A DNA stretch of 64,000 bases, taken from NCBI RefSeq assembly GCF_037042905.1, contig NC_087250.1, positions 20,090,001-20,154,000 of the forward strand, in the 5' to 3' direction. Below, one piece after another: positions 19,891-55,800 of the stretch. How positions within the stretch are numbered: the first letter of the stretch is position 1; every line of letters starts with the position of its first letter. The DNA is from Lytechinus pictus (Eukaryota). A program made the translations under genes and the position numbers. The notes under the pieces are model-generated. The model saw nothing but the letters and a program-made list of their open reading frames with translations, had not been told where the DNA came from and did no database searches.

Positions 19891-21052
19891 TATGCACCTT
19901 AATATCAACATTAACATGCAATCAAACACATAAGAAAAAAACAAACATGCATGGGTATTTCAAACCACGACTAAAACCATGTTATCTCACAGAACCATCA
20001 CTACATAAACCACAACAAACATTAAGAATGAAGAAGCAGGGGCTTGATTTGAATGGATTTTCATCTCTATTGACACAGACAAAGAATCATGTTCTGTATT
20101 GACCCTTAATGACTATTTCTGCTCGTTTTGCAGCTTTTCAATTCAGACCTCATCCAACACTTGTGAATCCTGCTCTTTTCGTGATGGCATGGTCATAGCA
20201 AGCATGGTATCATTTTAAAGAGAATTAAATGCTCTTTTTGAATAATTTCAAATCTACATTGTCTAAAATTGGGAGTTGGGAGAAATTAATGGCCAAACTC
20301 AGATTTCCAAACTTTTTTTGAGGGGTTTATTTCCCAGTTTAGATGCTTGAAGGACCAATTATTTTCATGAGGGTTGATATTATCATCTACATATTCTATT
20401 TCGTGCAGTGAACACTTGATGACATTGTGATCATTCCCAAAATTTCCCAGCACGTTCCATTTTAGTTTGCTGGCAATTTTCTTCGAAGCAATTGTTAAGT
20501 CTAGGCAAGACCTTGTCCCTGTATGGTTGTCCATTCTTGTAGGTGTCCCATCATTCAATACTACTAAATCATGTTTTGTTATAAAATTGTCAACTAATGT
20601 GCCATTACAATCTCGCTTTATGCTACCCCAGAGGGTTGTGTGAATTGAAATCACCTGTAATTATTATGTTTTTTTAACAATTTTCAATCAAATCTTCTAA
20701 ATCGCGCAATTCAATCTTTTGACAGGGATTATAATAATTGATTAATGAAATGACCTATTCATAAGTGAAAATGTCAATTCTTTGATATTCCTTGATTAGA
20801 GGAAAATTAACTTCTTTGAAAGTAACTATTTTATGCACATATATTGCAATTCCTCCTCTTCCTCCATGGCCTCTATTTTTTATTACTGAGATGAAATCTG
20901 GAATTGCTGATATATTAAAATCCGTGAACCATGTTTCTTGTAAACATATCAAGGCAGGGATGGAGTTTAATTCTACATTTTTTTATTAGCTCTTTGTACA
21001 AGTCAGGACCGCGAGCATTCATGCTTTGGGCATTCCATTGTAAAATATTTAA

Positions 21053-21646
21053 AGGACAAGTCCACCCCAACAAAAAGTTGATTTGAATAAAAAGAGAAAA
21101 ATCCAACAAGCATAACACTGAAAATTCCATCAAAATCGGATGTAAAATAAGAAAGTTATGACATTTTAAATTTAGGCTTAATTTCACAAAACAGTTTTAT
21201 GCACATCCTGGTGGGTATGCAAATGAGGAGACTGGTGACGTCATCCACTCACTATTTCTTTTGTATGTTATTATATTAAATAGGGAATATTCTATTTTTC
21301 TCCTCATTGTCAAATGAAACAATGATTAATTCCTCCCTGAACATGTAGAATGAGCATTGTTTAATACTATATGATCCAGTCAAGTTGGTCCTTATCATCA
21401 AATCTATAAAAAATGAAATATTGTATAATTCGAACAATAAAAAACAAAAGAAATAGTGAGTGAGGGACATCATCGACTGTCTCATTTGAGTTATGCATAA
21501 TCACTGTTTTCTGGAAAATAAGCAAAACTTTAAAATGTCATAACTTTCTTATTTTACATCCGATTTTGATGAAGTCTTCAGCGTTTTGCTAATTCGATTT
21601 TTCTCTATTTATTCAAATAAAAAAAATTATGGGGTGGACTTGACCT
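21053..21646. mobile_element. TTAA-specific non-autonomous DNA transposon (Kolobok-like) at the start of LINE ORF2
   Basis: TTAA-AGGACAAGTCCACCCC...GGGGTGGACTTGACCT-TTAA with long complementary arms; a partial copy lies at ~52249-52419. Confidence 0.9.
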
Positions 21647-23681
21647 TTAAAGGCCGAGTGTTGATAGTCATTGAGCTATCTTTATTACTGAAGACGGTCG
21701 TGGATCATCCATGGAGACACCTCGTTGATGTCCCAGCATCGTTTGGCTGCCCCAACCACTAATCTAATTCTGTTTGAATGTGAAGTTTCTTTGTCAAGGT
21801 TATTAACAATGAAAGTGATGAATGCCTGTGGATGCGGGAATTACAGGTCCAGATTCTTCTGCGTCATATAGGCCTATGATTAATCTCTTTAGAAGTAAAT
21901 TCTTGCGCATCTGCATGTCTGTACAGACTTTTCCGCCGTTTCTGTTTGTGTGGACATGGTCGCCGTTTGTAGGGTCGACCTCTATACCGTTGGTATTTGT
22001 TCTACGTCAGATTCCGAAGTATTAAGTTGATCTTGGATTTTCTTTCCTGGGGGGGGGGGGGATGATAATATTCTTGTTTGATGTTTCACGATCTTTTGAA
22101 TGATTTTCTTCTCTTTTTTCTTGATGGTATATTTTTATTGCTTGAGCATAAGTTAAGTTATTTTGCAAACTGAAAATATTGAATATTTTTGGCTTCCTTA
22201 TAAAAGGTACATTCTTGATAGGCCACTGAAAGCATTTTGGGTGATCTTTATTGGGGCACATTTCAAAAGTGTGGGCCTCACCATATCTTACACATCTTAA
22301 ATGACCCTTGCAATTATTTTGGATGTGCCCAAATTGCTGGCATTTGTGGTATCTTGTTATAGAAGGGACAAACTCATCAACTACATATTTTTGGTATAGA
22401 AAGGAGACATGGTGTGGAAGATTTGAAGAGCTGTGTTTCATCAATACAAGTATTTTTCAGGCTTCCCTTTTCTTTCATAATTTTACTCACCTCTCCATAC
22501 TTCGAGTTAATTTCTTTAATGAGTCTTGCTGGGCTTATTTTGTTTATGCATGATTTTTCACCAACATCTCTTATTTCTACTATCATAGATTTTTTTCTCA
22601 TTTCTGATATTCTGTTCCGTACCTTTTTTACGATTTAGACACGACCCTTTGTTTTTTAAACTTCCTTTCCTAACTCTTTTGTCGTCTTTATTTATAGTTC
22701 TTGTATACTTGCTTTTCTTTTTTTTTCTCTCCACTTTTCGCCACTCTATTTCACTTTCAAATTCTGTAGAACTCTCTCTATAATTTGTTTTATTGAGAAG
22801 AGATTGGAACATACCTTGTTTTCTATAACTGCTCGGAGTATTCATTACATTACCTATTGCGGTTTGGTAATATGCTTCTTCTCCCGAAGAAATATCTGTC
22901 TCTTCTGTTTCCATTGCCCCAGTTGTTTGAATATTATTAGAAGTACCGTTAACATTGTGTTTTGTTAGTATGCTGGTTATACGTTTACTGTAAATGTGCT
23001 TTTGAATTTCGCTGACAGGCTTACCAATCCGCTGTCCGAATCTAAAGAGTTGGTTCATAAGCTTCTCAGACTATCGATTTCAAATATTTGACACTTGTTG
23101 ACATTTGTTGGACCAATATCTGGATCTGGATAACTTTAGGCCGGAGCTCCCAGAAGATACGTCCGACGGGTAATGTGTGTACGGCAGACATCCATGTCTA
23201 CTGTACTCTTACTACGAGACCACTACGCAGCAATCACGGACACCCAGTAGGCGCTACGTCCAAATAGACCACGGAACAAACAAGTCACGCAATCTGCTGG
23301 ATGTAGTCAGAACGTAGTGGGAACCGCTTCGACGCAGCATAAACCGCTTTGCGCGCAAAATAAGCCTAGTGGGAACTTCACAAGGATTGAATGTCTACAT
23401 TAAGAACAAATACATTTATATTTTAATATCATTTGAATTATTGTCGAATTTATCTTGAAATCTTTTCCATAGTTTGTATTTATTTTGGAGGAAAGGGCAA
23501 AACACAAATGTTTTCTTACGTGTTTTCCAAGTTTCAGGGATCAAACATTGATTTATGTGCGAGAAACTCACCCTTGATTTGTCTTTATGCTTCCATCTTT
23601 TGTATGTTTGAATAGATCTCAAACATGATTTTTTTTGTGACAAACAGCATTAATTTTCTTTTCTCTCTACCCTTTTGTCAG

Positions 23682-23837
23682 TTTAAAGAGATCAACCGTG
23701 CACATAAAGTGCTGATGGATGGGAAGAAAAGAAAAATTTACGACAAGTACGGCTCGATGGGCCTACGGCTTGCAGACTCGGTGGGGGATGATAATGTGGT
23801 ACAGTACTTTGATTTGCTCGAAAGCAAATGCTTTAAG
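23682..23837 (+). CDS. DNAJC5: DNAJC5-like exon 3 (J-domain helices III-IV and linker)
   Basis: ttttgtcag|TTT AAA GAG...TTT AAG|gtatgt; [39 protein letters not shown] resembles CSP [39 protein letters not shown]. Confidence 0.95.
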
Positions 23838-24375
23838 GTATGTATAGCCTTAGATAAAGAGAGTGAGACAGAGAGAAACGATGACAAATAGTAACAGAAC
23901 GAATAAAAGAGTAACAAAGCGGATGAGAAGGTGAAAAAGAAGTCAAGGAAGAAGAAAAAAAGAGAAACAAACAGTATTAAGAAGAAGGAGAAAGAAACTT
24001 AATATAAAGAAGAAGAATAAAGAGGGGGAGGAGGAGAAGTCCATTGACGTAAACACTACAAAGATACTATACCGACAGGGTAGGAGAGCGGTAATCATAT
24101 CATAATCGGACAGAAGAAGAGGGCTATTGGGTTTTGTACTATATCACACCTAAATAAAAAAGGTAAATCTTTTACCGACACACACACACACAAAACTATT
24201 TCCTGATTGGGCTGCAGATTTCTAAGGAAATTTTCAACTTTCCATTATTTCCAAACATTACTTATAAACAAGAATATAATCAATATAAAAATTAAAAAAT
24301 ATTGGGAGTAGAATTAATGGTAATCATGTTGCATCTGATTGATAATTCATTTTTTTCTGTTTATTTCCTTGGTAG

Positions 24376-24510
24376 ATCACTTCAGTAATATGCTGCATAT
24401 TTACAGGTTGTTGTTGTTGTTGCTGTTGTTTCTGTTGTTTCTGTGGATGCTGTGGATTATGTAGTAAATGTCGACCGTCAGACGATGATGAGGATATCCA
24501 AGATGTAGAG
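24376..24510 (+). CDS. DNAJC5: DNAJC5-like exon 4 (cysteine string)
   Basis: ttccttggtag|ATC...GTA GAG|gtcagt; ITSVICCIFTGCCCCCCCFCCFCGCCGLCSKCRPSDDDEDIQDVE, 16 Cys; phase 0-0; absent from the supplied ORF track. Confidence 0.93.
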
Positions 24511-24516
24511 GTCAGT

Positions 24517-24990
24517 TTATTATTATTATTAGTAGTAGTAGCAAAAGTAGTATTTAGTATTGTTACGGACATTATTATCACTAGTACTACTACTAGTACT
24601 AGTACTACTACTACTACTACTACTACTACTAACGATAGTAGTAGTGTTGGTAGTAGTAGTAGTATGGGTGTGTATTTGAGTTTTGAGTTAGTAGAAGTAG
24701 AAGTAGTAGTAGTAGTAGTAGTACAATTAAGTAGCAGAAGTAGTATGATTATTATTATTGTTGTTGACATTATTGTCATTATCATTATTACCATTACTTC
24801 TACTACTACTACTACTACTATTTTCATTATCATTGTTATAATTATTATTGTTATTATCAATAGTAGTAGTAGTAGAAGTAGTAGTAGTAGACGATCTAGT
24901 AGCAGTATAGTACCATTACCATTATTATTATCATTATTATTATTTCTGTTGTTATTATTGTTTTGTAAATAGTTATTATCATCATTGTTA
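24517..24990. repeat. Compound (TAG)n/(TAC)n/(ATT)n microsatellite field
   Basis: Direct reading. Confidence 0.92.
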
Positions 24991-26048
24991 CGATACTGCA
25001 ACAAATAACAATGGAAATTTAGTTTAAAATATGATTTCCTTTCTTTTATTACTGGAAATATATCAATAAAAAAAAACAAAACATCTTCATGTCTTGAAGA
25101 GTTAGATATGCAATCCAAGGTTATAATAGTCCAAATAAAATCCAAGTCAGTTGGCGAAGATTCCTTTAATTAAAGTTCACAATGATGGCGTTGATGAAAT
25201 TGATATTGAAGCACGATGAAGAACAAGAGTCACTGTAACGAGTTGAAATGTCCGTGAAGACGATGTTGATGATGATTAACAGTCAATTTCAGCAATCCTT
25301 TGGTTGAAAAGCGTTCAATAAAACAGGTTTATGATCTCGATGAGAACTGAGATTTCCTCTCTCAAAGTAATATAACTGCAAACAGTTCATTGATGGTGTG
25401 CAAATAATTCCACAGAAGATAAATGTTGTATTCCAGTTGGAAATAAACTATGCTCTGACATAAAGTCTGGCGTGAAACTCTGAGTTCTGATCTTATATGA
25501 TGATCTCCTTGAAGAAACTGCCAGCTTATATATAAATTATTCACTATTTTGGAAGCTTCTAGTATTCACTATTTTGCAAGCTTCTAGTATTGTCTACAAA
25601 AAGAACATTCTGCCAATTTCTAGAGAAATCTAATTTTAGAAGACTCTTGAACGACCTCGGTGAAATTAACAATGTAAACAACGTAGCTAATCCTATTGTC
25701 CTTTTCACTGCCAGTTGTAGTCTATTGTCTATTGTCTTTGGACATTCCAGAAATAACAAAGATTTCTCAAAGATTACTCATGTCTAACATAGCTTTGTTG
25801 AGACATTCTGGAATATTCTTAATCATTTTATGCTATGAATATCCTTAAAGAGGAAATAACTAAATAAATGAATGCAATTGCTCTTACAATTTTTATACAT
25901 AACATCAATAGTGGCAGAGTTTGTAGTAGCAATAGTAGTAGTTTATAGTAGTAGTAGTAGTTGTTGTAGTAGTAGTAGTAGCAGCAGCAGCAGTAGTAGT
26001 AGTAGTAGTGGTGGTGGTGGTAGTAGAAGTAGTAGTAGTAGTAGTAGT

Positions 26049-26342
26049 GGAGCGTTGTGGCCCAGTGGATTAGTCTTATGACTTGAAACAGAGGGTCGTG
26101 GGTTCGAATCCCAGCCATGTCGTAATTTCCTTCAGCAAGAAACTCATCCACATTGTGCTGCACCCAACCCAGGTGAGGTGAATGGGTACCCGGTAGGAAG
26201 AAATTCCTTGAATGCTTGAGCGCCTATAGGCAGCTCAGCTAAAGCCGGGGTAATAATTATAGCAGGGCCCGCTGGTAGAACAGTTTTCGAAACTGAAGTG
26301 GCTACCCTGGGTAAATATACCTATATTATTATTATTATTTAT
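26049..26342 (+). mobile_element. tRNA-derived SINE
   Basis: A box TGGCCCAGTGG, B box GGTTCGAATCC, central CCCAGGTG...AATGGGTACC block, (ATT)n tail. Confidence 0.9.
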
Positions 26343-26470
26343 TAGTAGTAGTAATAGTAGTAGTGGTAATAGTAGTAGTAGTGGTAATAGTAGTAGTAGT
26401 TGTTGTAGTAGTAGTAGTAGTAGTAGCAGCAGCAGCAGTAGTAGTAGTAGTAGTAGTGGTGGTGGTGGTA

Positions 26471-26506
<36 letters not shown>

Positions 26507-27454
26507 TAGTAGTCTATAATAATAGTAGTAGTTATGATAGACTAGTAGCATCACTATCATCATCATTATTGTTATCATTATTTTATGATTATCACTATTA
26601 CATGTGTTATTGTTATTATTATTAATGATAATAATCGTCAAAATAAAAGTTACAGGATTACTATCAATTTTTAAATGATCAAACGATTAGGGTTATTTCG
26701 CCGCGCGAAATGTTTTGACCGCGCCGCTCTCCGGCCTTTTACTTTCAAGTCTTGCGCATCTTTTGAGATCAAATTTGTGACGGCCGCCCGTGAACACGGT
26801 TCCAAAATAACGCAACATTTTGTAAGTGCATGCATGTCAGAAATTTGTTTTATGCTGTCCCCCAACAAAGTTCAATGAAAAACAATGAAAAACAAAAGGT
26901 CAAAAAACAAAGAAATACCTAAGAAATTGCATAAAACTATATTCATAATACATAAGAAATTCATCTGATATTGCATTTCTTTTTCACGTACATTTGTAAA
27001 AACACTACAAACAGTTTCTACACCAACAAATAATAATATTTAAAGCTTTATTTAGGGAGTTGGAGGAAAGGATATGATTTTGCATAGGCCTACTATTTAC
27101 GCATTTAAATGAGCATAATCAGTCTATAGCAATTAGCATGCAACAAATTAATATACAACAATGTCCCAAACAACCTGCGCGCCAATTTTCGGCGCGATCG
27201 ACGGCAGAGATCTCGAGGAAGGGGGGGGGGGGGCTGTAAAAATACCTTGGCCGAGATAGTGTTAATACCTTGGGGAAAAAAACAATAGCTCATTTAGCAT
27301 TGGAACATGCGATTTTCAATCGTTCGTAAAAACCTGCATAATTTACAAGAATATCCATAAAATCTTCAATTAATAATAGGCAGTCTATTGAAGTCTGTAT
27401 ACGTTGGCCTTATTACATAGAGTATACTGCATCTTATCTCCATTTGTACATCAG

Positions 27455-27571
27455 GGCTTTGATGGAGAGGATGAAACGCCTGTGAGTACCCAACCTCAAG
27501 CCGCGCAAGAGAATGACGTGTTCCTGACTCGTACTACACGGACAAAGAAAGCACATACAGAGTGTTTCTAA
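27455..27571 (+). CDS. DNAJC5: DNAJC5-like probable last coding exon
   Basis: catcag|GGC TTT GAT...TTC TAA; GFDGEDETPVSTQPQAAQENDVFLTRTTRTKKAHTECF*; ETPVSTQP resembles CSP DTPIVIQP; phase 0. A possible internal donor CCT|gtgagt at 27481/27482 makes the 3' end uncertain. Confidence 0.65.
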   Translation, partial: GFDGEDETPVSTQPQAAQENDVFLTRTTRTKKAHTECF

Positions 27572-33849: not shown

Positions 33850-34285
33850 GGGTTCTACAAATGCAAAGCAAAAAAAATGTTCACTTCACCATCACATCCA
33901 AGAAACAACCACATTCACAAGTTCAGTCACTGGACAAAAATTCAACATACGCGATCACATAAACTGCAAATCCTCATGGGTCATCTACTTCCTAACATGC
34001 ACTAAATGCAACATGCAATACGTTGGAAAGACTGAAACAACACTATACCCACGACTAAATAACACTAGATCAGAAGTAACTTATTACAACAAAAACAAAC
34101 CCAACAGCAAAACCCTCCCATACACCATACATTTTAACCTTCCCGGACATACAGTACACAACATTAACATCACTGCCATCGAAATAGTAAAAAACAAGAA
34201 ACACGACACCATCATGAAAAGGGAATCTCATTGGATACACAAACTCAAAACATTAAGACCACGTGGTATAAACGCCGACCAATAA
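33850..34285 (+). pseudogene. Penelope GIY-YIG endonuclease domain
   Basis: INCKSSWVIYFLTCTKCNMQYVGKTETTLYPRLNN...HFNLPGH...RESHWIHKLKTLRPRGIN; frameshift in A7 run near 33870. Confidence 0.9.
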
Positions 34286-34778: not shown

Positions 34779-36556
34779 AAGATCGCACTTTGCGTTCGCA
34801 TTATTTATTTAGGCCCTGTGAGATACCTTCATTGTGTTTTTGAGAATAAATTTAAGATTTTCTGTAACTTTCGTCTGTAGACCGAAACAATTATCTTGGT
34901 GCCCCCTACCAAAGTTTAAGCCGCCCCCCCCCCCCCGTGCGCCCCTGCTGAATAAATCCCAGCTACTCAACTGATGAGGAGATTGAGTTGTTTGCCTCCG
35001 AGATTGCACTATTTCCAAGAGGTTATCAATAACATTATTGAAGAAAATTCTAAAACGATTCGTATGAAATGACAGCTCCCGCTCACACAATTCTAGTAAG
35101 CCGGGCCCCTCTATGAAACCACCAATTGCTTCAAACAGAAAATTAATTGATTTTTTTCTTCATGAACACATATCATTAAAAAGAATCGGCATGCGTATTA
35201 CTCATGGCATAATCTAAGAAACTATAAGATCAACTTTCACGAGAAATCTCGTAACTAATTGATTATTGTTTCTTTTATTATTTTCTCTTTTTTCATTTTC
35301 ACACAATCTCATTAGTTGTAATCGATTACCTGTACTGAACCAATTCATTAGAGCATGGATCTATGCTTGTAGTTCAATTTCTATATTATTTTTGTTTAAT
35401 TTTCACAACTCACACATATCATTTATATTACACATGATAATATATATTTTAAAACATTCTATATTCTAAGACAACAATGTTAAAGTAAACAAATTATAAA
35501 AAAAAATATGTGATATTAACTAGCATAATTATTAATATAAGAGTATATATAATTTTCACATTCAAGACCTCATTCATTCTACGAAACTTAGCAAATTAAT
35601 ATAATTATTTTGGCAGTGGACTGCATACGGTATGCGTTCACTAATTTTAGGATAGACAGGCATACTGTAAAGAATTCGGCAAGTCAGATTACCGAAATGT
35701 CTGTGTAGATATATGATGAAACATGTGACAGAAAATTCTGGAGAAAGTTGTGTAACTGCTGAGATAAAAAGCTAAACATGCATGACATTTTTTTAAAATC
35801 AATATCTTTCCTCGGAACGATCATTTTCTTCGCCAAATTTTGCCTGAATGTGCAACATACGAAGGGAGTTTCAGAAACAACGAAAATTCAAAATTGACTG
35901 ACGTGTCTCTTGCTTCGTTTTGCGAAAGTTGAGCAAAATAGTCAACATTATGAAAAATGGTCACTAGAATAGTTATTTGTTAAAAAGTATTCTAATACTT
36001 TACTAGTATGTTTAAGTTTCTAATATTTATTAAATATTTATTAAATAAATAATTTTGGCAGTGAATCTCGTACGTTTTGAGATCACTATATTAAAGAAAA
36101 TTGAATTCATTGGAAAATTCAAGAAAACTTGTGCAAAATCAGAAAATCAAAGAAACCGATCAATAATTCAGTTAATAATGAGAAAGTTATGAGAATTTGA
36201 AGTTTAAATCTTTATTGTAATATAGATCCTCCCATTGGCAATGCGACAAAAAACTGTGATGTCACATGTGAACAACTTTGCCATTACTTTTGTATATACA
36301 CTACTCAAAAAAAGTTAAGGACCACTTTTTAAAACGTACATAAAGATTTTATACAAGGTGTTTTATTTCTGGAAATACCTCAGTACAACTGTCCTAAATG
36401 TCCTTAAACACGCTGTAATCAATTTCACGCATGGGTGGTTTCAGTTGTTGCACAATGTCTCTCGCATCACTGCACATCCTGAAATGTGGGCCCCGAGGGG
36501 TATCAGCTACCGACATGAAGTGGTAAAAACGAATGTCTGAGTGTCTTTCAGGCAGT

Positions 36557-37569
36557 TCAGTAACGAGTGTGACCACCTCCTGCAGCAATAACGGCTTCAC
36601 AGCGCTGTCTCATGGAGCTGATGAGGCGATTGATGTCTCTGACGTCCAGTGCATCCCATGCAGCCTCCAGAGCCACACCCAGCTGCTGCAGTCCAAGTGG
36701 ATGGGCTTCGAGCTGCTCGAGACTCCTCCCCATCATGTCCCAGACGTGCTCTATCGGGTTTAAGTCCGGGGACCTCGCTGGCCACTCCATACGCTCAATC
36801 CCCTGGCCCTCAAGGAACTCGGTCACCACCCTAGCTCGGTGGGCACGGACATTGTCATCCATGAAAATGATGTTTTGTCCCACATTTTCTGCAAATGGCA
36901 CCACTATAGGTTCAAGGACCTCATCCCTGTACCTCACTCCTGTCATTGCTCCCCCTGGGACCACGTAGAGACGAGTACGGTTGGTGTAGGTGATGCCTCC
37001 CCACACCATGACGCTGCCTCCCCCATAACGGTCATGTTCTGCAATACAGGGGTCTGCAAATCTCTCTCCTGGTCGCCTCCAGACTCTCGAACGTCCATCA
37101 TTGTGGTCAAGGGAAAATCTGCTCTCATCTGTGAACAGAACTCTACGCCATTGCTGTCTGGTCCATCTGACATGCTCCCGGGCCCAGTTGAGACGAATTC
37201 TTCTGTGAGCAGGGGTGAGTGGGACACACTGAGCTGGCCGTCTGGCATGCATATTGGCTCTGTGAAGTCGGTTACGGATTGTTTGAGTGGAAACAATCAC
37301 TCCAGTTGCTGCAGCGAAGTCATTGTTGAGGCGGCGTGCACTGTGAAAGCGGTTGCGGAGGCTGAGATTCGTCAAGTAGCGATCATCTCTAGGGGTTGTC
37401 GAAACTGGTCGGCCACTGCGGGGTCTCTCGGAGTATAGCCCTGTCTCTCGGTGTCTTTGATTTGCTCTGCTAATGACACTGTGTGACACGCCCATCATTC
37501 TGGCTACTCTTCGCTGACTGAGGCCAGCTTCCAGCATCCCTAGGGCTCTGGCTACATCTGTTTCACTTA
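36557..37569 (-). CDS. Tc1-family transposase, open but lacking its first ~6 codons
   Basis: HTH domains, RSGRP, TDESRF, VMVWGGI, MDDN, WPARSPDLNPIE; 34 residues between second D and E; native MPRHHL start replaced by a duplication junction. Confidence 0.93.
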
Positions 37570-38270
37570 TTTTCTGCAAATGGCACCACTATAGGTTCAA
37601 GGACCTCATCCCTGTACCTCACTCCTGTCATTGCTCCCCCTGGGACCACGTAGAGACGAGTACGGTTGGCGTAGGTGATGCCTCCCCACACCATGACGCT
37701 GCCTCCCCCATAACGGTCATGTTCTGCAATACAGGGGTCTGCAAATCTCTCTCCTGGTCGCCTCCAGACTCTCGAACGTCCATCATTGTGGTCAAGGGAA
37801 AATCTGCTCTCATCTGTGAACAGAACTCTACGCCATTGCTGTCTGGTCCATCTGACATGCTCCCGGGCCCAGTTGAGACGAATTCTTATGTGAGCAGGGG
37901 TGAGTGGGACACACTGAGCTGGCCGTCTGGCATGCATATTGGCTCTGTGAAGTCGGTTACGGATTGTTTGAGTGGAAACAATCACTCCAGTTGCTGCAGC
38001 GAAGTCATTGTTGAGGCGGCGTGCACTGTGAAAGCGGTTGCGGAGGCTGAGATTCGTCAAGTAGCGATCATCTCTAGGGGTTGTCGAAACTGGTCGGCCA
38101 CTGCGGGGTCTCTCGGAGTATAGCCCTGTCTCTCGGTGTCTTTGATTTGCTCTGCTAATGACACTGTGTGACACGCCCATCATTCTGGCTACTCTTCGCT
38201 GACTGAGGCCAGTTTCCAGCATCCCTAGGGCTCTGGCTACATCTGTTTCACTTAGGTGGTGTCTTGGCAT
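37563..38270 (-). pseudogene. Truncated Tc1 transposase (native ATG, stops before the second D and the E)
   Basis: MPRHHLSETDV...VVPFAENK*; 685 bp tandem duplication relative to the downstream copy. Confidence 0.9.
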
Positions 38271-38601
38271 TGCTATCCAGCTGTCCAGGATGCCATCAAA
38301 CACAATGAAATCAATTTCACACATGCAGTTCTTTCATGTCTCTTGCATCATTGCAATGTGCCCGTACAAAAGTGGCTTCCAAAGCATTTTCTGTCTTTAG
38401 TCTCTACAATCAACAACTTGCTGACAATAGCAATGCCAAGATACAGCTGTCCAGAATGCCATCAAACACAATGACATCAATTTCACACATGCAGTTCTTT
38501 CATGATGTCTCTGGCATCATTGCAGTGGGCCATAAGACAAGTGTCTTCCAAAGCATTTTCCGTCTTTAGTCTGTACAATCAACAACTTGCCTACAACAGC
38601 A

Positions 38602-39422
38602 ATGCCAAGACACCACCTAAGTGAAACAGATGTAGCCAGAGCCCTAGGGATGCTGGAAGCTGGCCTCAGTCAGCGAAGAGTAGCCAGAATGATGGGCGTG
38701 TCACACAGTGACTTCACAGAGCCAATATGCATGCCAGACGGCCAGCTCAGTATGTCCCACTCACCCCTGCTCACAGAAGAATTCGTCTCAACTGGGCCCG
38801 GGAGCATGTCAGATGGACCAGACAGCAATGGCGTAGAGTTCTGTTCACAGATGAGAGCAGATTTTCCCTTGACCACAATGATGGACGTTCGAGAGTCTGG
38901 AGGCGACCAGGAGAGAGATTTGCAGACCCCTGTATTGCAGAACATGACCGTTATGGGGGAGGCAGCGTCATGGTGTGAGGAGGCATCACCTACGCCAACC
39001 GTACTCGTCTCTACGTGGTCCCAGGGGGAGCAATGACAGGAGTGAGGTACAGGGATGAGGTCCTTGAACCTATAGTGGTGCCATTTGCAGAAAATGTGGG
39101 ACAAAACATCATTTTCATGGATGACAATGCCCGTGCCCACCGAGCTAGGGTGGTGACCGAGTTCCTTGAGGGCCAGGGGATTGAGCGTATGGAGTGGCCA
39201 GCGAGGTCCCCGGACTTAAACCCGATAGAGCACGTCTGGGACATGATGGGGAGGAGTCTCGAGCAGCTCGAAGCCCATCCACTTGGACTGCAGCAGCTGG
39301 GTGTGGCTCTGGAGGCTGCATGGGATGCACTGGACGTCAGAGACATCAATCGCCTCATCAGCTCCATGAGACAGCGCTGTGAAGCCGTTATTGCTGCAGG
39401 AGGTGGTCACACTCGTTACTGA
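38602..39422 (+). pseudogene. Defective Tc1 transposase copy in opposite orientation
   Basis: Native ATG at 38602; ~210 bp internal deletion at 38710 shifting the frame; TGG>TGA at 38976-38978. Confidence 0.92.
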
Positions 39423-39854
39423 ACTGCCTGAAAGACACTCAGACATTCGTTTTTACCACTTCATGTCGGTAGCTGATACCCCTCGGGGCCCACTTTTCAG
39501 GATGTGCAGTGATGCGAGAGACATTGTGCAACAACTGAAACCACCCATGCGTGAAATTGATTACAGCGTGTTTAAGGACATTTAGGACAGTTGTACTGAG
39601 GTATTTCCAGAAATAAAACACCTTGTATAAAATCTTTATGTACGTTTTAAAAAGTGGTCCTTAACTTTTTTTTAGTAGTGTATTTCACTTAAACTGCCTC
39701 TTTCATCTGTCATCTATCAGTAGATCGTGTGTTCTTTCTATAGTGAGAGCATGTCATGCAGATTTTTAAATGAATATTATTATGGATAAGGAGTTTGTAT
39801 CACCATTATGGAAGAGCAGAACGAGACATTTTGGAGGCATTTTTTGGTCCATCA

Positions 39855-41615
39855 CAGAGGTGGATCAAGCTTTCGCAAAAGGGGGGGGGGTGGCGATTTT
39901 TTTTACCCATGTTTTCCCCGATCGGCCGCTTTTTATTTGTTTCTTTGAAGGGGTAGTCCTAACAGTCACTTCTTATCTTTATTATCACAAAAACATAGAT
40001 AAATAACAATCTCAATGTGTTGGCTCTGTTGGTAGAGCGTCCGTCTCACAACCGGGAGGCCGGGGGTTCAAACCCCCCAAAAAGTTAAAAGATGGGAGTT
40101 GCTGCTACCTTATTTGGCGTTCAACGATTAAAGGGATAGAGCCTCGTCGATCTGGCGCTGCGCAGCGACAGCCGGGCCCTCGTTCGGAGTAATTCATTTC
40201 ATGTCTATTTCGAACAATAAAAACATGGATTTTCATATCAGACCTAATTAAATAGTACGAGCGCGAGCTAATTTTTTCAGGAAATTTCATGTATTTTGAA
40301 CAAAAATTGAACATTTGATCTGAGCATTGTTGTGATCGTGAACAAGATCTGTATGTAACTAAATAATTACTGCGAGCGCGAATCGCAAGCAAAAATTTTT
40401 AATGTACGTTCTGACCATGGAAAACAGATCTTAAGGACTGTTTGAAGTCACCCATGAAAACGATACATATTTCAACAATCCAAATAATTCGAGCGCGAAG
40501 AACGAGGTGAAAATTTTTGACATTTTGACCCAACAATTTGACATTCTAAGCACTTTTTGTAATTATAAGCAGGATAGGTACATAACTAAACATTTCATGC
40601 AAGCGCGAAGCGTGAGCGAAAAAAAAAATAATAGATATAGACCTAAAAACGGGACACAGTATTCGTGTTTCGTAAATCACAAAACGGATGACTAATTGGG
40701 TATCTTCATAAATTAATAATGAGAGCGCGAAGCGCGAGAAGAAATTTTTTGATATTCTGGTATGAAACTGGATAATTTAAGTCCGTTTTGAATAAAGAAC
40801 AAACTGCGTATTTGTTGCGTGCGCTTGTTTTTTGAGATCTCGACCTAGAATCTGGGCATTTTAAATGCATTTCTTTTATTATGAAAATCAATAATGCGCG
40901 AGCGCGAACTGAAAAATTATGGCGATTTGAAGAGGGTCAATTTAAGCACTATTTCAAGCATCGTAGGAAATTTGTGAAGTGGATATGGATCGTAAAACGC
41001 GAGCAGATTTTTTAAAATGATTATTTAGACCAAGCACTCGGGACAATTGTACGGACATTTTGTCATCATATGAAATTGACTATTTTCCTGTTCCCCTTCC
41101 TAAGCGCGAGATGAAACTTGTCGATATCGATATTCCGTTCTGAAAAAAGGGACAAAGTCATTATTAGGAATTCATGAAACTGTTACCTTATTTATCAATC
41201 TAATATTAATGAGAGTTCGAAATCTGTTGATATTAAAGCCTGAAAACAGGACATTTTAAACATTTTTGAATATTTTTTACGGCCTACTTGTCTGTGCGCA
41301 TTGTGGTAATACGCCTATGCAGAGCTAATCGGCCGTTGATGGATAGAGTGCAGGAGACCCATGTGCAGGGAATGTCTTGAGGTGAGCACAGTTGCGGTGG
41401 CGTGGATTGCCTACATGACTACCAACAGAATGCGGTGCCACTGCGATCGGGCCGGTCGTTACGAGGCCGTAAATGAAACATGGAGATAATACCTCCTTCT
41501 TACCTTTCTTTCTGTTTTTCAGTGTTTCTCTCAAGTTAAAAGGACATTTTTTTTGGTTGCCAAAAAAAAAATAGGGGGGGGGGGGCTGGGCCGGCCCCCC
41601 TTAGATCCGCGCCTG
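39855..41615. mobile_element. Non-autonomous DNA element with GCGAGCGCGAAGCGCGAG internal motifs, carrying a SINE fragment (~40018-40180) and a small MITE (~41277-41473)
   Basis: Ends CAGAGGTGGATC...GATCCGCGCCTG; paralogous partial copies at ~50737-51557 and ~60370-60820. Confidence 0.7.
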
Positions 41616-43659: not shown

Positions 43660-46600
43660 CTGAAGTGCACTGTATGTACAGATTGGTTGCATATTGGCTG
43701 TATTGGTATAAGCCCTCAAGATTATGATAACTTATCAATCGCCTTTGAAAATTGGATGTGCCCAAAGTGCGTATTTACAGAACTCCCCTTCTACAACCAA
43801 GAACAACTAGATTTTTAAACTTTGTCCACATCCGTTAATCCAGAGGCTGAGAATACTCATGTTTATACCGATCAATGCCACATCAAATTCGACAATCTTA
43901 ACTGCAGGGGGCTAAATGTAAACAGTCTCATTCGACACCTTGACGAAGTCAAGTCAATACTACTACTCAATAAAATTGATATATTTGCTGTGAACGAGAC
44001 CAAGATACACAACTCAATAAGTAGTTTTGAGGTAGATATTGAGAACTATGTCATGATTCGGAGAGACCGAAACCGTCAAGATGGCGGTGTCGCCCTCTAT
44101 GTCCATAAATCCTTAAAAACAGAGTGTATTACACAACATGACTCATTTAAAGGAGAATGAAACTCTTGGAGCAAGTTAGCTTTTGTGAAAGCAGAAAAAT
44201 CGAAGAATAAGATCAACAAAAGTTTGAGTAAAATAGGACTAGCAATAGAAGAATTATGAGCATTTGAATGTCCAGATCACTAATGCTATGGGGATCCTCC
44301 CGTTGGCAATGCGACCAGGATCTATGATGCCACAGATGAACAACTCTCCCCTTTTGGACGCTGAAAATATACCCCAAAACATCTCTTTTTGCTCATTCTA
44401 ATCATATGAAAAATGATTCATCAATGATATAATGTTGTGAAACCTCTGTACTTGTCCTCTCATAAAGAAAACACCTCACCTTGTGATAGACTCTATAAAA
44501 GTGAGAATATAAGTGAAATAAGTACTAAAGTAATGAGGGAGTTGTACGTGTGTGACATCACAGATCTTGGTCGCATTGCCAATGGGAGGGTCTACATGGC
44601 ATTAGTGATCTCAATATTCAAATGCTCATAACTTTCTTATTATTAATTCAATCTTCCTCAAACTTTCAACAATATGTTTCTTTGATTTTTCTCTTTGATA
44701 TGGATTCAGCTGGTTTCAAGGGTTTCATTCTCCTTTAAGGAATTAGAAATTGTAGCTACTATCGTTCATTGGAAGAATTGTAAACCGCTTTTGGTTGCTA
44801 CCTGGTATAGACCGCTAAATTCCAAAATCGATGTACTTCTTGCAAATGAGGCATTTTTACAGCATGTTGATAGACTTAAGAAATATATTATATTAATTGG
44901 TGACATTAACTGTGATCTGTTATCGCATGCTATTTCTTCTCACACAAGAATGTATTGTGAAATTAATGACATCTACGCTATCAAACAGGTAAATACCACA
45001 GAACCCACAAGGTTAACCAGCCAGTCCGCCACTCTTGTTGATCACATGTCATGTAACTGTTCACATGGAATAAAATCGCATGGTGTCATTCATAGCGGAT
45101 TAAGTGATCACTCCATGAGCTTTTTGATACTAAAATCCGAATCTACTCCATTCCCAAGAATTGTCCAGTTTAGAGACTATAAACACTTTGATATAGATAA
45201 ATTTAGAATTGACCTTAAAACTCAACCATGGGAGAAGGTAAAAGATTTTGACAATATAGATGATGCTGTTGAGTCTTGGCAAAGCTTTTTTACTGATGTA
45301 ATCGATAAGCACATGCCTGTCCGAACAAAAAGGTCAAAACAACGCAATACTCTCTGGATGAATTTGAATATATAGAAGCTTATGAGAGATCGAGACAAGA
45401 CAAAACGTAAAGCTCTTAGAACCAAAGATAATGACATGATGTCACAATACAGAATGCTTTGCAATAAAGTCACACTTGAAATTCGAAAAGCCAAGCGAAA
45501 ATACTTTACTGACAAATTTTCAAATATGAAAGTAGACCCTAGGCAAACTTGGAGAGTCCTAAAATCAGTAATTTCGGATAACAAATCTGATTCTTCCTTC
45601 AGTGAATTAAGGGAGAATTGCGATATAGCCGAGAAATTCAACTCATACTTTTCTGGTAATGGAACAGTTCTAGCTGACACACTTCCAGCAACGATACCTT
45701 CAAGTGACTACTACCAAGTCATCAACAGCACATTCAATTTTACCTCCATTCATGATTCAGAAACTCTGAAACTGATAAAGAGACTGAAAAATAAGAAATC
45801 TACTGGACTAAATTGAATATCTGTATATATTTTGAAACTAAGCGCTCTAGAAATTACCTATTTAATCAACAAATCATTGAAAGATGGGAAATTCCCTAGT
45901 TGTTGGAAAGCTGCTAAAATTGTACCTAGACATAAACATGGTGATAAGTTCTCTCCTGACAATTTTCGACCTATTTCACTGTTACCCTGTGTGTCCAAGA
46001 TACTAGAACGTGTTGTGCAACGCCAACTTCTAGAATATCTCCATAAGAATGACATTTTATGTGAACAACAGTCTGGATTTAGGCCGTTGCATTCCACTAC
46101 ATCAACGTTAATCAAAGTCACCGACGATTGGCTGAAGGCCATGGATGATTCCAAATATACGGGTGCTGTATTTATCGATTTGCGAAAGGCTTTCGATACC
46201 ATAGATCATCAAATCCTGATTAAGAAAATGAATAATATTGGTATACAAAGCTTAACCGGCCAATGGTTCTATAGCTATTTAACCGGTATAACATGTCAAA
46301 CACTGTTAGTCACTCTCTTTCATCTACCAAAGTCACTTCATGTGGGGTCCCACAAGAATCATAATTAGGGCCGCTTTTATTTATCATATATGTTAACGAT
46401 CTTAGCATCAAAATAAAGTCAAGTAAACTAAAATTGTACGCTGACGATACAGTACTATATTATTGTAATGCCTCAGTCCGTGAAATTGAATCTACTTTAA
46501 ACAGCGATCTACTTATTTTAAATCAATGGATGGCTGAAAATAGATTAAGTGTTAACTACGAAAAAACAGTCTGCATGTTAATTGGCAGTCGTCATATGTT

Positions 46601-46920
46601 GTCAAAAGACAAATGCCTGAATGTAAATCTAGGCACGAACAAAATCAAACAGGTTAATGATGTTAAATACTTAGGTGTAATTTGTGACGACCAAATCAAA
46701 TGGAATACTCATATTGATAAAATGATAAAAAAGATAGGTCAAATGGTTGGATTTCTTGGTAGGTTAAGAAGCTTTCTAAACGAAACTATTCTCAAACTCA
46801 TTTATAAAACCTTTTATTCTTTCCCACTTTGATTATGGAGATATTATTTATGGATCAGCCAGTAAATACCTAACGGAAAGACTTCAAAAACTCCCAAACC
46901 GTGCTGGTCGTTTAATTTTT
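43660..46920 (+). mobile_element. Decayed CR1/L2-group LINE: partial PHD finger, APE, RT
   Basis: CTVCTDWLHIGC...WMCPKC..ELPF; LNVNSL, AVNETK, RRDRNRQDGGV, WYRP, GDIN, SDH; FRPISLLP, QSGFR, FIDLRKAFD, YADD, KYLG; stops and frameshifts. Confidence 0.92.
44151..44734. mobile_element. TTAA-specific Kolobok-like element, 584 bp, copy 2, splitting the LINE APE domain
   Basis: Same TIRs and length as 13470-14053; TTAA on both sides. Confidence 0.93.
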
Positions 46921-46924
46921 TATA

Positions 46925-47240
46925 TAAATAAGTTTTTAGAAGATTTTTCAAAGTCTCGACAGGAGGTACATTTTTATGTCTTCAGGAAGGCTATTCCACA
47001 AAGTGGGGCATGCAAAAGCAAACGATCTCCCCCCAAGTTTTTGAAACTTTTGGAATAACAACGAAGCCAGAAGTGGATGAGCTCAAAGACCTGCTTAGTC
47101 TACGTAGTAAATGATAAACGAAAGACTGCATTGTGGTGCTGATCCAATAATACTATGAAAAGCAAGCAACAAATTCTTAAAGATAATCCGATTTTTGATA
47201 GGGAGCCAGTGCATGCAACGAATTCAAGATGGGAGGGATA
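46925..47240 (-). pseudogene. 3' fragment of an L2-like LINE
   Basis: Minus strand gives degenerate HWLPIKNRIIFK and GGRSFA..AP.LWNSLPED C-terminal motifs. Confidence 0.65.
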
Positions 47241-49597: not shown

Positions 49598-52450
49598 TTA
49601 ATAATTTATTTTTTTAATTTCTCCAATTATTTTACCCAAGTTAACCAACCTGGGGGCCGTTTCATAAAGCTGTTCGTAAGTTAAGAGCGACTTTAAGAAC
49701 GACTGGTGATCATTTCTAACGCGCTAAACCTTCGCCAATGAATATACCATTTACCACAAGAAATGATCACCAGTCGTTCTTAAAGTCGCTCTTAACTTAC
49801 GAACAGCTTTATGAAACACCCACCTGCTCTGAGGACTCCTTGTTTTTCTACTTTTAATCGATTACAAGAATTGAATCAATCGATTATAATGGAAGTACAA
49901 ATACATTTTTTTTTTCTCGACAAGTGTTCACCGGAGCTTCTTAGTTTTCTTTTTTTATCTCATCGTTTTTTTTTCTAACGAAATAAGATCAAACAATACC
50001 GCCGACGACCGCCGTACAAAAGTATCATTTGTTATAAATGAGCAATGTGTGTTCGTCATTTACATAGGCGTCAATGCAATTTGACAGCATATTTTATAAA
50101 TATCTTTCCATAGAACGATAATTTTCTTCGTCAGATTATGCCTGAACGTGCAACATACGAAGAGGGTTTCAGAAAAAAAACAATAACTCGAAATTGACTG
50201 ATGTGTTACTTGCTTCGTTTTGCCAAAGTTAAGCAAAATAGTCAAAATTATGAAAAATGTTATGATCACTAGAATAGTTATTTGTTAAAAAGTATACTTA
50301 TAATGGTACCTACTTATATTTTGACAGTTTATTGATTTATTTACTACATTTTGGCTGTGATTCTCGTTCGTATTGAGATCACTATGAAATCTTTGGAACA
50401 TTCAAGAAAACTTTATCAAATAACCGATCCATATTTGAGTTAATAATGAGAAAGTTATGAGAATTTGAAGTTTAAATCATTATTGTAATATAGATCCTCC
50501 CGTTGGCAATGCGACAAAAAAGTGTGATGTCACATGTGAACAACTTTGCCATTACTTTTGTATATTTTTCACTTAAACTGCCTCTTTCATCTGTCATCTA
50601 TCAGTAGATCGTGTGTTCTTTCTATAGTGAGAGCATGTTATGCAGATTTTTGAATGAATATATTATCGATAAGGAGTTTGTATCAGCATATGAAAGAGCA
50701 GAACGAGAGATTTTGGAGGAAATTTATGGTCCATCACAGGGGTGGATCCAGCTTTCGCCAATGGGGGGTGGGGGATTCCGAATTTTATTTTTCTTACCCA
50801 TATTTCCCCAATCGGCCGCTCAAAGTTGATTTTTATTTGTTTCTTTGAAGGGGTAGTCCTAACAGTCACTTCTTATCTTGCCCTAATTGAATAGTACGAG
50901 CGCAAAGCGCGAGCTAGTTTTTAAGGTAATATGTATTTTGTCCTAAAAATTGAACATTCGATCTGAGCAATATTGTGATCGTGAACAAGATGTGTATGTA
51001 ACTAAATAATTACTGCCGGCACGAATCGCAAGCAAACATTTTTAATGTACGGTATGGCCTGATGGAAAACAGATCTTCGGACTGTTTGCAGTTACCCATC
51101 AAAACGAAACATATTTCAACAATCAAATAATGCGAGCGCGATGCGCGAGCTGAAAGTTTTTGACATTTTGACTTAAAAATTTGGCATTCCAAGCACTTTT
51201 TGTAATTATAAACATGATAGGTATATAACTAAACATTTCATGCGAGCGCGAAGCGTGAGCGAAAAAAAAAATAGATTTAGACCTAAAATTGTTTCGTAAA
51301 TCACGAAACGGATGACTAATTTGGTATCTAAATACATTAATAATGCGAGCGCGAAGCGCGAGAAGAAAATTTGTGATATTCTGATATTAAACTGGATAAA
51401 TCAAGAACCTTTTTTAACAAAGAACAAACTGCGTATCTGTTGTACACGCGTGTTTTTAGATTTCGACCTAGAATCTGGGCATTCTAAGTGCATTCCTTTT
51501 ATTATGAAAATCAATAATGCGAAAGCGCGATCTGAAAAAAATGATGGCGATTTGAAGGTTATTCACGAACTTAGCGAAGTACCCTTAATTTTTGTGACGT
51601 ACCTGTTACCTTGCAGTCGCGGACGCGCACATACACATAACGCGTTTAAACCTTGAGTTTGGGTTTGGGTATGCTCTTGCCTGGCCGCGCATTATATCCA
51701 ATGCGTTGGTTCATAAACTCGTTCCGGCCAGTTTTCTCAAACACACAAATTAGCGATCAAAATCGGTTCCAACTGTGAAATACATTAGCAGAAATAAGGC
51801 CTATACAGTATTTCCCTGTGTTTTGTACAGGATTTCTATGGGCAAAGCCCGAGGAGGGCAACATGGCAAATGTTTACCTCGTTGGTCTCTGATTGAAAGT
51901 AGCGAGCGAAAAATGGCTTTTATTTATTTCCGAAAATGCCTTGTATCGGTATAAAAACAGTTATGTGGACTCTGTAATAAATGCATCGATAACTTGTATT
52001 GTCTCAATCGATTATAGTTAAATTCCATTATTATTTAAAAAAAATCACGACAGCTCATTTTTCAGTTTTTATATGACATATTAAAATGTGTTTTTGTTAA
52101 AATTTTTAGAATTTAGATTAAAAAGTAAGCAAACATTCTATATAACGAAAATATGATTAAAGATTATTATTATTATTTTGGCAGTGGACTGCACATGTTA
52201 TAAGTTCACTAATCTTAGGAATAACAAGTAAACTCGAATTAAGTCGTGACCCCAACAAAAAGTTGAGTTGAATAAAAAGAGAAAAATCCAAGAAGCATAA
52301 CGCTGAAGATTTCATCAAAATCGGATGTAAAATAAGAAAGTTATGACATTTTAAAGTTTCGCTTAATTTCACAAAACAATTATATGCACATCCTGGTCGG
52401 TATGCAAATGAGGAGACTGAAATGCCGATTAAGTGTAAACACGGTAAATT

Positions 52451-52870: not shown

Positions 52871-55800
52871 AGTATAACTTCGCGGTCGACATCGCGTGCA
52901 AGGCTCAGGCAGCGCGCAGTGCTAGCTTTGATGCTTCATAAAACAATAAAAACCATATGGCAGGAATTCACCATTCATCGGTCTAAATTTCACTCACAAA
53001 TGTGCTGGTAAATTTCTCTCCGACCTCCTGCATAGGCTAATAAACAGCACATCTAGTCGAGCCGCATCGGCCAGCGCCGATAATCGCATGCTTGTATGCA
53101 CTTCAGTACTAGCGTGTTCAATAAGCTGCCGGCTATTTCCCTCATGAGGCATTGCGGGGCTCACAGGTCTAATTCATTTCCCATAGACTTGTGTGTTAAA
53201 GTGGCACTTAAAAAGAATTCATAAAACATAAGGAGGAAATTCGAGGGTTAAATGTTTACTACCAGTGGATAGGATAAATGTCTGACATTCCATATCTGAC
53301 CAGAAAAGGGTACCTCGACCGGCTCATTTTAAAAATAATCAGTATTTATGAAGACTACACCTGCCGGGACCAAATTCGTAACTTCCGATAGTAAAATGAC
53401 CCTAATTCTTCCGCCAGTAAAAATAAAGTTCCATTGTGGTGATATATCTTTCCAATTTGGAAAAAAAGTAAGTTCAGTAGGTACCCTCCCTAGAATCAGT
53501 GTTAGATTGTCAGTCATATTCATTCATTTTTGTCAATCAGCAATATCAAATTTAAAAATTGAGCAATGGGTTGGCTCGAATGAATATCTATGGCCTGCCA
53601 GTTGTGATTAGGCCCGTGCGACCTGCGAATTTCGGCCTGTCCGCTGCAACCGATAGATGGCGCACCGTACAGTGAATCCACCGAATTACCCTTGGTTTTA
53701 AAGACGGTCTCATGAGAACTGCAACGATTCTCATTTATCTTTCAACCTCAAAGGATAAACGGAGCAGCAGCTTTAATACCCCCCTTAAGTCCAAATACTC
53801 ATAAATGACCTGACTCATTACCCAAAATGCAACATTCTAAGCAGTATAGACTTCCGCTATAGGCCCACTTGAGTGATACAGTGATTTTTATTTCTTATTA
53901 TGCACCTTCAGGGGCATGGAAGAAATACAATAGTGTAACAACAAATATAGATATACATAAAAAAAGTTAAAAGAAGTTTTCGTAACAAACTGTAGACGTA
54001 TGTAGGAGAGTTTAGATGTGTTACCTTTGCTAATCCTTGCCCAAAAATTAACCATACGCATCTCTATTCTACTTGCGAGGGCACTTCTACCATTCGTAAT
54101 AGGTCCATGCTTCTACCAAGTTCACCATACACCATGCATTTGGCAGTGCCACGATTTAGTTTAAGCAAACTTTTAAGAAATTTCCTATTAAATATCTCAA
54201 CTTTCAAGCTTCTGGAAGCCCCACACTTCACTACCATACAACAAAATCGGAACAACAAGCTGATCAAAAAGCTCACACTAAATATCCACAGGTAAGCACA
54301 ATTTTTTTGCTGTGCAAATTAAAGCAAACATAGCTCTCCTCGCCTGATTAACCGGTTTAGTGATAGCTTCATTAAAGGAACCATTATAATTGAAAGTCGT
54401 TCCGAGGTATATACAAAATCAACAACATTGAGGGTATTATCACCAAAGGTAAATTTGGGGTATTTTCGCACTTTTCCACGAGAAAATATAACAATCTTTG
54501 TTTTGCTTGTGTTGACAGACAATTTCCAAAGATCACAGTACTGCATGGTGTACAGCTGATAAAGCATTTTGCAGTCCATCAGCAGTCTCCGCCATAACAA
54601 TCGTATCGTCCGCATACAGCAACACATAAAGACGTAAAATACTTCAATATCATCATTACTGAGATTGTTCCTGAAGCACACACATCAAGACCTTTATAAC
54701 GCCTACTAACAAAATATTCAAAATCATTCAAATACATTGCAAACAGTAAAGGAGACAAATTTTCTCCCTGCCTAACTCCTATATTACAAGCAAAAGAATT
54801 GGACAAGCTGTAACCAAGTTTTATACACGATTTTGCATTTAGATACATATTATATATAATCCTAATGATGTTACCATTGATACCATTAGAAATGAGTTTA
54901 TACCACAAGGATGACCTATCAACTAAATCAAAAGCTTTCCGATAGTCTATAAAAGCACAATAAATTCTCTTACAACGGTGTAAATATAAATCAATTAAAC
55001 CATGTAAAGTGAAAATATGATCCATTGCGCTATAGCTTCCTCTAAATCCAGCTTGTTCTTCACCAATAATCCCGGCACAATTCAAAAACTCAGTAAGTCT
55101 AGTGTTTATGCAAGATGTAAATAACTTTTCCAAACAACTTAAGAGTGTAATACCCCTATAATAATTATCTGGGTTATTGATCGAGCCCTTGTTTTTATAC
55201 AAAGGCTTTATTATACCTATATACTCCATAACGAAGGAACTAAACCAGATGACAAAGTAATGTTAAATAGTTCCACAATAAGTGATATCATTACATCTGG
55301 ACAGTTTTTCAAGTATTCATTTAAAATATTATCTATACCACATACTTTATTATTTCGCAAATTACCAATCATCTTCACAACTTCTTCTTTGGTAAAATCA
55401 TTATTAATAAACTCATTGGTCGAATGATTTAAAGTCGTTGGATCAAACTCGATTCATCTTCAGCATTTAGATCTTCAGGCTTGGTACTTAATTTCTCAAA
55501 ATGCCTCAAAAAAGCATCCAAAGAAACATTACCAGATTTATCAGCAGAAATAGTAGCTTTATTCAAAATATTCCAGTACTCATTGGGTTTACTGTTTTTC
55601 GAATTACGCATACTTAAATGCAAAGCGTTGTAATAATTCCTATAATATGTCCTTAAAAATCTCTTATACTCTTTGGCTTTACTCTTTTACTCGTTTTGAG
55701 CTTCAGCAGTATTCATCTTCTTCAACCTTGCATTTAGATATTGCTTCCTCCTCAGTTCACAAGATTTATTGAACCAATGCTTACTTGTTCGAGTATGGAG

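Follow-up and report, generated by a model that had tools for sequence, protein, structure and literature searches.

Replacement of one transposon end by an inverted copy of the other is already known in mariners of Rhodnius and Drosophila, and in Aedes. In Rhodnius prolixus, the 5′ part of two mariner lineages has given way to an inverted 3′ part containing transposase sequence, resulting in long terminal inverted repeats (TIRs); Rpmar17 comprises 227 such copies with mostly different breakpoints and Rpmar49 comprises 13 copies amplified by transposition (PMC4678618). These elements are mostly shorter than 1 kb (the longest exceeds 1.7 kb) and the arm of Rpmar49 is 221 bp. Goblin, a miniature inverted-repeat transposable element (MITE) derived from Ozma in Aedes aegypti, is 213 bp long, with 15 copies, a 6-bp microhomology and no long piece of open reading frame (ORF); a model of gap repair with template switching has been published for it (PMC3814204). 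The Dromar7, Dromar11, Dromar28 and Dromar36 MITEs of Drosophila are likewise non-autonomous, with long TIRs and one end replaced by the inverted other, but the polarity is opposite: in all seven sublineages it is the 5′ part that has taken the place of the 3′ part (PMC4161770). Bari elements give further context on long inverted repeats (PMC4877112). Here we describe an element within 64,000 nucleotides of Lytechinus pictus (assembly GCF_037042905.1, contig NC_087250.1, positions 20,090,001 to 20,154,000 of the forward strand), a stretch hereafter called the window, whose own coordinates are used throughout. The element spans 36299-39680 (3382 bp) and is a derivative of a DD34E Tc1 transposon with a 3′ end at each terminus. 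It shares the polarity of Rpmar17 and Rpmar49 but differs from them in being a Tc1, in its length (3.4 kb, against ~1.9 kb for the parent), in the 971 bp of each arm and in the presence of three junctions. Arms of about 1 kb and microhomologies of 1-2 nt also set it apart from Goblin. We consider it probable that this derivative of a young family arose when gap repair was interrupted and the template switched within the outer TIR common to both ends; the mechanism, timing and mobility are what we infer from the arrangement described below.

Both termini derive from the 3′ end of the transposase unit. A transposase stop codon lies inward of each terminus (36557-36559 on the reverse strand and 39420-39422 on the forward strand), and both ends are therefore downstream of the ORF. 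The terminal 25-mer was found at only two sites in the window, the two ends of the element (0 and 1 mismatch), and two matches were obtained in 0 of 100 shuffles. Comparison of the window with itself aligned 36296-37269 to 38710-39683 in inverted orientation, and the arms proper (36299-37269 and 38710-39680) align without indels and match at 965 of 971 positions. TIRs and a duplicated TA are present, as expected of a Tc1. The target site and its empty counterpart are as follows.

36297-36298: left TA of the target-site duplication.
39681-39682: right TA of the target-site duplication.
50096-50879, forward strand: host repeat paralogous to the target region and lacking the element; its alignment (82% identity over 830 columns) crosses the junction.

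When the flanks were joined over one TA they aligned without gaps to this paralogue, with 44 of the 45 displayed bases equal. The sole mismatch is the target itself, which reads TT in the paralogue at 50565-50566, a single substitution. The junction was spanned by 1 of 11 non-self matches to the joined flanks, and judged from this one paralogue the element therefore sits at one TA. A first-pass annotation of the window had proposed a rearranged element with two right ends at a single TA, with near-identical inverted arms and flanks that rejoin at a paralogous empty site. Each of these points is borne out, and the data are compatible with both origins that it had offered, transposition as a unit or remodelling in place. 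The TU fold-back elements of sea urchins were set aside as an identity, given the Tc1 ORF and the duplicated TA.

Two copies (96% identity) of a 593-bp MITE-like element with inverted arms of ~200 bp lie at 13466-14058 and 44147-44739, and matches to diverged fragments of this element occur both in the left flank of the Tc1 target (36166-36294) and in the empty paralogue. Degenerate paralogous blocks of 80-87% identity are found at 35.8-43.6, 49.8-52.2 and 59.8-62.7 kb, the third of which lacks the stretch containing the target site.

Between its termini the element is assembled from the following pieces, where nt refers to nucleotides of the transposase ORF and UTR to untranslated region.

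36299-37569, reverse strand: Segment A, 3′ end, 3′ UTR and ORF nt 17-1029 (residues 7-342), without the native start.
36299-36493, reverse strand: left terminal region, the 3′-type copy of the ~195-bp imperfect inverted repeat of the family, mirroring 39486-39680; extent judged from contigs.
36362-36367, reverse strand: AATAAA in the left terminal region.
37569: junction J1, ORF nt 702 joined back to nt 17, a 685-bp tandem duplication with 1-nt microhomology.
37569-38276, reverse strand: Segment B, which extends from ORF nt 702 back to 4-6 nt ahead of the ATG (38270).
38275-38277: junction J2, strand switch and centre of the fold-back near the start codon, at most 2 nt shared plus one non-native base.
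38278-38443, forward strand: leader unit U1, normal 5′ leader of the family.
38444-38601, forward strand: leader unit U2, in tandem with U1 and ~88% alike.
38602-38710, forward strand: Segment C, ORF nt 1-109 beginning at the native ATG, an inverted copy of 38162-38270.
38598-38710: right-hand side of the inner stem (113 bp).
38710: junction J3, 208-bp deletion (ORF nt 110-317) with a frameshift, 1-nt microhomology and a 5-nt snap-back-like inverted repeat.
38710-39680, forward strand: Segment D, the right arm, with ORF nt 317-1029, 3′ UTR, AATAAA at 39612 and the 3′ end.

The protein of Segment A scores above cut-off for the Pfam domains HTH_Tnp_Tc3_2 (PF01498) and DDE_3 (PF13358), and contains the catalytic triad D153, D244 and E279, in which 34 residues separate the second D from the E. 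These domains and the DD34E triad identify the element as a Tc1. However, Segment A lacks the first six codons, and a start at the internal Met17 would yield 326 residues. Segments C and D together (C+D) are frameshifted after 36 native residues and contain a nonsense codon at 38976-38978. The ORF of Segment B reads as a truncated protein of 235 residues that retains the DNA-binding region but, of the triad, the first D alone. With no intact ORF and no 5′ end, no autonomous transposase gene is left. The KP protein of the P element is a truncated repressor and offers an analogy for the Segment B product, whose frame runs uninterrupted from the native ATG across the DNA-binding domains and ends short of the second D and the E. 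Its service as a DNA-binding, catalytically dead repressor is nevertheless hardly credible, as the leader of Segment B is cut 4-6 nt before the ATG and the retained leader faces the other way.

Intact transposases of 342 residues with 99% identity were found in ENA and Logan contigs. Among the 24 sequencing runs listed, no more than 0.34 of the words of 35000-41000 were present in any, while ordinary family sequence alone accounts for 0.35 of the distinct 31-mers of this interval. Therefore, none of the 24 runs contains this locus. Contigs from 4 of the 24 runs (X3, X8 and X16 among them), all of foreign organisms, were aligned to 37955-39900 only. X3 and X8 each contain a 1498-bp contig with the leader, an undeleted ORF and the 3′ end, showing 3 and 4 differences from the window, respectively. 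In both, U1 adjoins U2 directly and is itself preceded by another, partial unit. The two units are also contiguous in X16, which rules out that they are a duplication made by the rearrangement; they are the normal leader. In the 5′ leader of the family (38278-38612), tandem units of ~166 bp are repeated at least 2.5 times, and each unit closes with a copy of the start-codon context, which places upstream ATGs before the true start.

A contig from X8 that contains the 5′ end has an inverted match to 39486-39559 (6 differences in 74), continues with ~87 unalignable bases and then matches the outer TIR over 30 bases. The two ends of the intact family thus resemble each other in two stretches only, the outer ~30 bp and 74 bp farther inward. 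By combining pieces from different runs, we infer a parent of ~1.9 kb with imperfect inverted repeats of ~195 bp, of whose 5′ end ~285 bp would be missing from the element in the window. For comparison with the inverted-repeat/direct-repeat (IR/DR) Tc1 subgroup, whose inverted repeats of ~200-250 bp contain direct repeats that bind the transposase, the imperfect repeat of the parent was read from one contig; no exact 7-mer direct repeats were found in the 195 bp of the 3′ end except for an A run. A family that simply has very long TIRs is ruled out, since the intact contigs have an undeleted ORF and a different 5′ end. The same comparison confirms that the element has no outer 5′ end, as the first-pass annotation had held, and the junctions it had placed at 37569/37570, ~38277 and 38710 were recovered at 37569, 38275-38277 and 38710.

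The element thus resembles the Rpmar17, Rpmar49 and Goblin type in that its termini and subterminal regions come from the 3′ part of the parent and the 5′ end is absent. As in that type, it is non-autonomous and has a close intact parent family, here represented by the foreign contigs (3-4 differences over 1498 bp). The MITE sublineages of PMC4161770 are shorter than 1000 bp and have at least two copies with the same breakpoints and different flanks; at 3382 bp the element exceeds this size, and there is one copy in the window.

Long inverted repeats with near-perfect arms pose difficulties for assembly, and no reads of this locus are present among the runs. Even so, it is highly improbable that the element is an artefact of assembly or library preparation, such as a collapsed repeat or a fold-back chimera. 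Both ends stop exactly at the TIR and TA; the flanks beyond them differ and, once joined, have the right length. A chimera made by fold-back would lead back into its own flank, whereas the element exits into the other. Moreover, every segment has its own substitutions with no indels, the junction overlaps of 1-2 nt are too short for joins made by overlap assembly, and the window contains no N.

These substitutions also bear on the age of the junctions. Their polarity was set by the foreign contigs and protein P0125. Segment A has three private substitutions (36485, 36849 and 36985), Segment B has two (37888 and 38213) and C+D have three (38752, 38978, which is the nonsense change, and probably 39673, at TIR position 8). 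The last was deduced from difference counts, as it lies too close to the contig ends for listing. This corresponds to 0.21-0.28% per segment and to a total of 8 in 3380 bp (0.24%), none of which are shared. The duplicates that lie in cis, A and B, differ at 3 of 686 positions and the arms at 6 of 971. Had one arm been copied from the other after equal further ageing, ~3 shared changes would be expected, and the probability of finding none is ~0.05, a figure that applies to copying within the element only. Given similar substitution rates and no shared derived change, the three junctions look about equally old. This weakly suggests that they are about as old as the insertion.

The anatomy, the microhomologies of 1-2 nt at the junctions and their similar age are probably best accounted for, in a single event, by interrupted gap repair. 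After excision, a sister or ectopic copy would serve as the template for restoring the element. Because both family ends match over the outer ~30 bp and then diverge, a strand would be able, having copied one outer TIR, to re-invade the 3′ end and then run inward. Synthesis would be non-processive, with one strand slipping back to give the 685-bp duplication at J1 and the other skipping ahead to give the 208-bp deletion at J3, before the two were end-joined near the start codon at J2. The outcome would be an element in which the 5′ ~285 bp are replaced by an inverted ORF and 3′ end, leaving two 3′ ends. If gap repair is the explanation, formation at this TA is somewhat favoured, and formation elsewhere followed by movement here as a unit is somewhat less probable. 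Both origins leave a TA on each side, so the TA duplication cannot tell an element formed here from one that arrived here.

Short repeats that span a junction are a trace of synthesis-dependent end joining. One of 5 nt is present at J3, and at J2 under one of two breakpoint assignments. Other internal deletions in the family, such as one in X16 in which the 5′ end is joined to 39083, also count for an origin in repair. Several points weigh against this explanation, however. No end-joining signature is found at J1, and the score obtained was reached by 18% of 3000 random joins, so that these repeats give slight support. The microhomologies of 1-2 nt are shorter than the 6-8 bp at Goblin, Elf and Gnome, and neither J2 nor J3 is bridged by any of the 30 contig pieces listed (of 89, from the 4 foreign runs). 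As those runs do not contain this locus, the absence of J1-J3 from them is no evidence on the locus itself. The change at position 8 of the right TIR may impair mobility. Moreover, end preference varies by element, and Mboumar-9 prefers its left end (PMC4505599). Lastly, no sequence feature separates gap repair from an origin in a head-to-head pair.

According to this alternative, two family copies inserted head to head, the centre containing both 5′ ends was deleted and the pair was moved to this TA by its outer 3′ ends. This is the simplest hypothesis published for the mariners Rpmar17 and Rpmar49 (PMC4678618), and arms with no shared derived changes fit independent parents equally well. An engineered Mos1 with two right ends moves efficiently, which also speaks for it. 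However, three or four separate events would be required in a family that is only ~0.24% diverged, A and B (3/686) are about as diverged as the arms (6/971), which suits one burst, and host spacer DNA is absent from the centre. We therefore regard a composite origin as unlikely.

Whether made by gap repair or otherwise, an element with two 3′ ends could plausibly still move. The engineered Mos1, like the element described here, has two 3′ ends that flank a cargo, although it is artificial and was assayed in vitro with 28-bp repeats; it transposed 26-fold better (PMC4505599). By analogy, the element is probably mobilisable in trans, and most likely it has no function.

Nearly identical sequence of the family is present in runs that bear the labels of six organisms (X3, X6, X8 and X16 among the runs) and in marine and echinoderm metagenomes; the 1498-bp contigs with 3-4 differences from the window are of organisms B and C. 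A protein of the sea spider Nymphon striatum falls in a 90% cluster shared with the family (P0123). This distribution suggests recent horizontal spread of the Tc1 family, although the organism labels are coded and do not give the relatedness of the carriers. X16 is an oligo-dT RNA library; the break of its internally deleted derivative (~ORF nt 690) lies 12 nt from that of J1 (nt 702), and depth over the 3′ part is higher than over the full-length contig. Exact TIR scans of bacterial and archaeal genomes and of viral contigs returned 0 matches each. A scan of metagenomes returned 14 loci with 28-44% protein identity, none of which showed DNA similarity to the window. Inverted segments also accompany two distant Tc1-like sequences. 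In the metagenome contig L008, a 356-bp self-inverted segment (2356-2711, 91%) lies upstream of a match to a distant Tc1-like transposase. In L003, an inverted 161-bp piece of transposase ORF (2490-2650, 93% to 3250-3413) lies immediately beyond the 5′ TIR of a Tc1-like element that is likewise distant.

Inverted duplications of at least ~1 kb of transposase sequence with the potential to form a hairpin are known from Mu killer (Muk) and the Ac composite insertions of maize, for both of which silencing has been shown genetically (PMC3440606; bioRxiv 10.1101/2020.01.07.897926). Ac composite insertions were shown to yield double-stranded RNA (dsRNA) and small interfering RNA (siRNA) (bioRxiv 10.1101/2020.01.07.897926), while the hairpin read-through model for Muk is disputed (PMC3440606). 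In the predicted fold of a full-length transcript of the element, the outer stem has 965 pairs and the inner stem 113 pairs, with perfect runs of up to 363 bp. The hexamers AATAAA and ATTAAA occur once per strand, at the far end of read-through (39612 on the forward and 36367 on the reverse strand). The lack of internal poly(A) hexamers was rejected as a sign of selection because it is not significant, arising in 21-31% of shuffles. A transcript started from the leader would be of transposase sense in both directions and would not pair with itself; for dsRNA, transcription would have to come in from a flank or begin at an antisense promoter within a 3′ end. Other features of the window are as follows.

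12363-27570, forward strand: gene similar to DnaJC5/cysteine-string protein, at least five exons.
83-4963, forward strand: long terminal repeat (LTR) retrotransposon with PNMA-type gag, reverse transcriptase (RT), RNase H and integrase in three long ORFs.
43819-47058, forward strand: broken element of the long interspersed nuclear element (LINE) type, RT domain by Pfam.
54319-59397, reverse strand: broken LINE-type element, RT domain by Pfam.
16868-23070, reverse strand: broken LINE-type element.
33851-34285, forward strand: ORF resembling, by eye, the GIY-YIG endonuclease of a Penelope-like element.

Endonuclease- and ORF1-like pieces of the broken LINE-type elements were recognised by eye. 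The exons of the DnaJC5-like gene (12363-12440, 15435-15494, 23682-23837, 24377-24512 and 27455-27570) match DnaJC5-like proteins of Lytechinus variegatus and Strongylocentrotus purpuratus, with only two matches among eight candidates. Its J-domain reads NKK where the L. variegatus relative has HPD. The last coding exon is at 27455-27570, which rules out that the element lies in an intron of this gene. The window yielded no host transcription unit that covers the site; downstream, the ORFs of at least 70 residues are LINE remnants and repeats, though small exons could escape.

The first-pass annotation had suggested that read-through would give a hairpin of ~1 kb. As a conditional this stands, given the predicted stems; the covering host gene that would supply the read-through was not found. 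The likeness it had drawn to Muk finds no support beyond these stems. Muk has two promoter-side (TIRA) ends and flanking genes and the element has two 3′ ends, so the polarity is opposite, and RNA started from the centre would be sense only. A hairpin silencer would be compatible with either origin of the element: RNA reading across the element from a flank, or from an antisense promoter in a 3′ end, would form ~1 kb of dsRNA, and the resulting small RNAs would repress the family. Such a silencer would draw on the two predicted stems, the single hexamer at the far end of each strand and arms ~99.7% identical to intact family members, and in C. elegans read-through of Tc1 ends followed by fold-back feeds RNA interference (review PMC3878927). 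Nonetheless, we find such a role very doubtful here. The absence of earlier hexamers is expected by chance, the nearest gene ends at ~27570, 8.7 kb upstream and behind 13 AATAAA on the forward strand, and nine more lie on the reverse strand between 39681 and 47000. Against it also stand the sense orientation of leader transcripts, the opposite polarity to Muk and arms with no sign of homogenisation. Sea urchins have one Dicer (review PMC3268030), and no paper on hairpin siRNAs in urchins was found by title. The accessible text of PMC6396948 contains no statement on an RNA-dependent RNA polymerase in urchins. Equally doubtful is a broader proposal, that a young and widespread Tc1 repeatedly converts itself into fold-backs with two right ends and that some of these, this copy included, are read through from flanking chromatin into kilobase dsRNA that starts silencing. 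The family would then be an animal counterpart of Mu killer, a prospect we rate just as low, spread over many loci with reversed polarity and a poly(A) signal at the far end of each strand. Neither an animal Tc1 fold-back resembling Mu killer nor a description of this family was found in the open-access literature by title or the start of the abstract.

The element is a clean, young example of end swapping in the Tc1/mariner group, with three repair junctions that can be read at the level of single bases. If copies with two right ends prove common in the genome, the family would be a good system in which to ask why one polarity wins. Candidate causes are that such copies are better substrates for the transposase, or that they escape dsRNA of their own making because a transcript from the centre is sense on both sides. 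The finding would carry greater weight if such copies did trigger the first recognition of a new DNA transposon in an animal, and the private alleles and unique junctions make a role of this locus in silencing directly testable.

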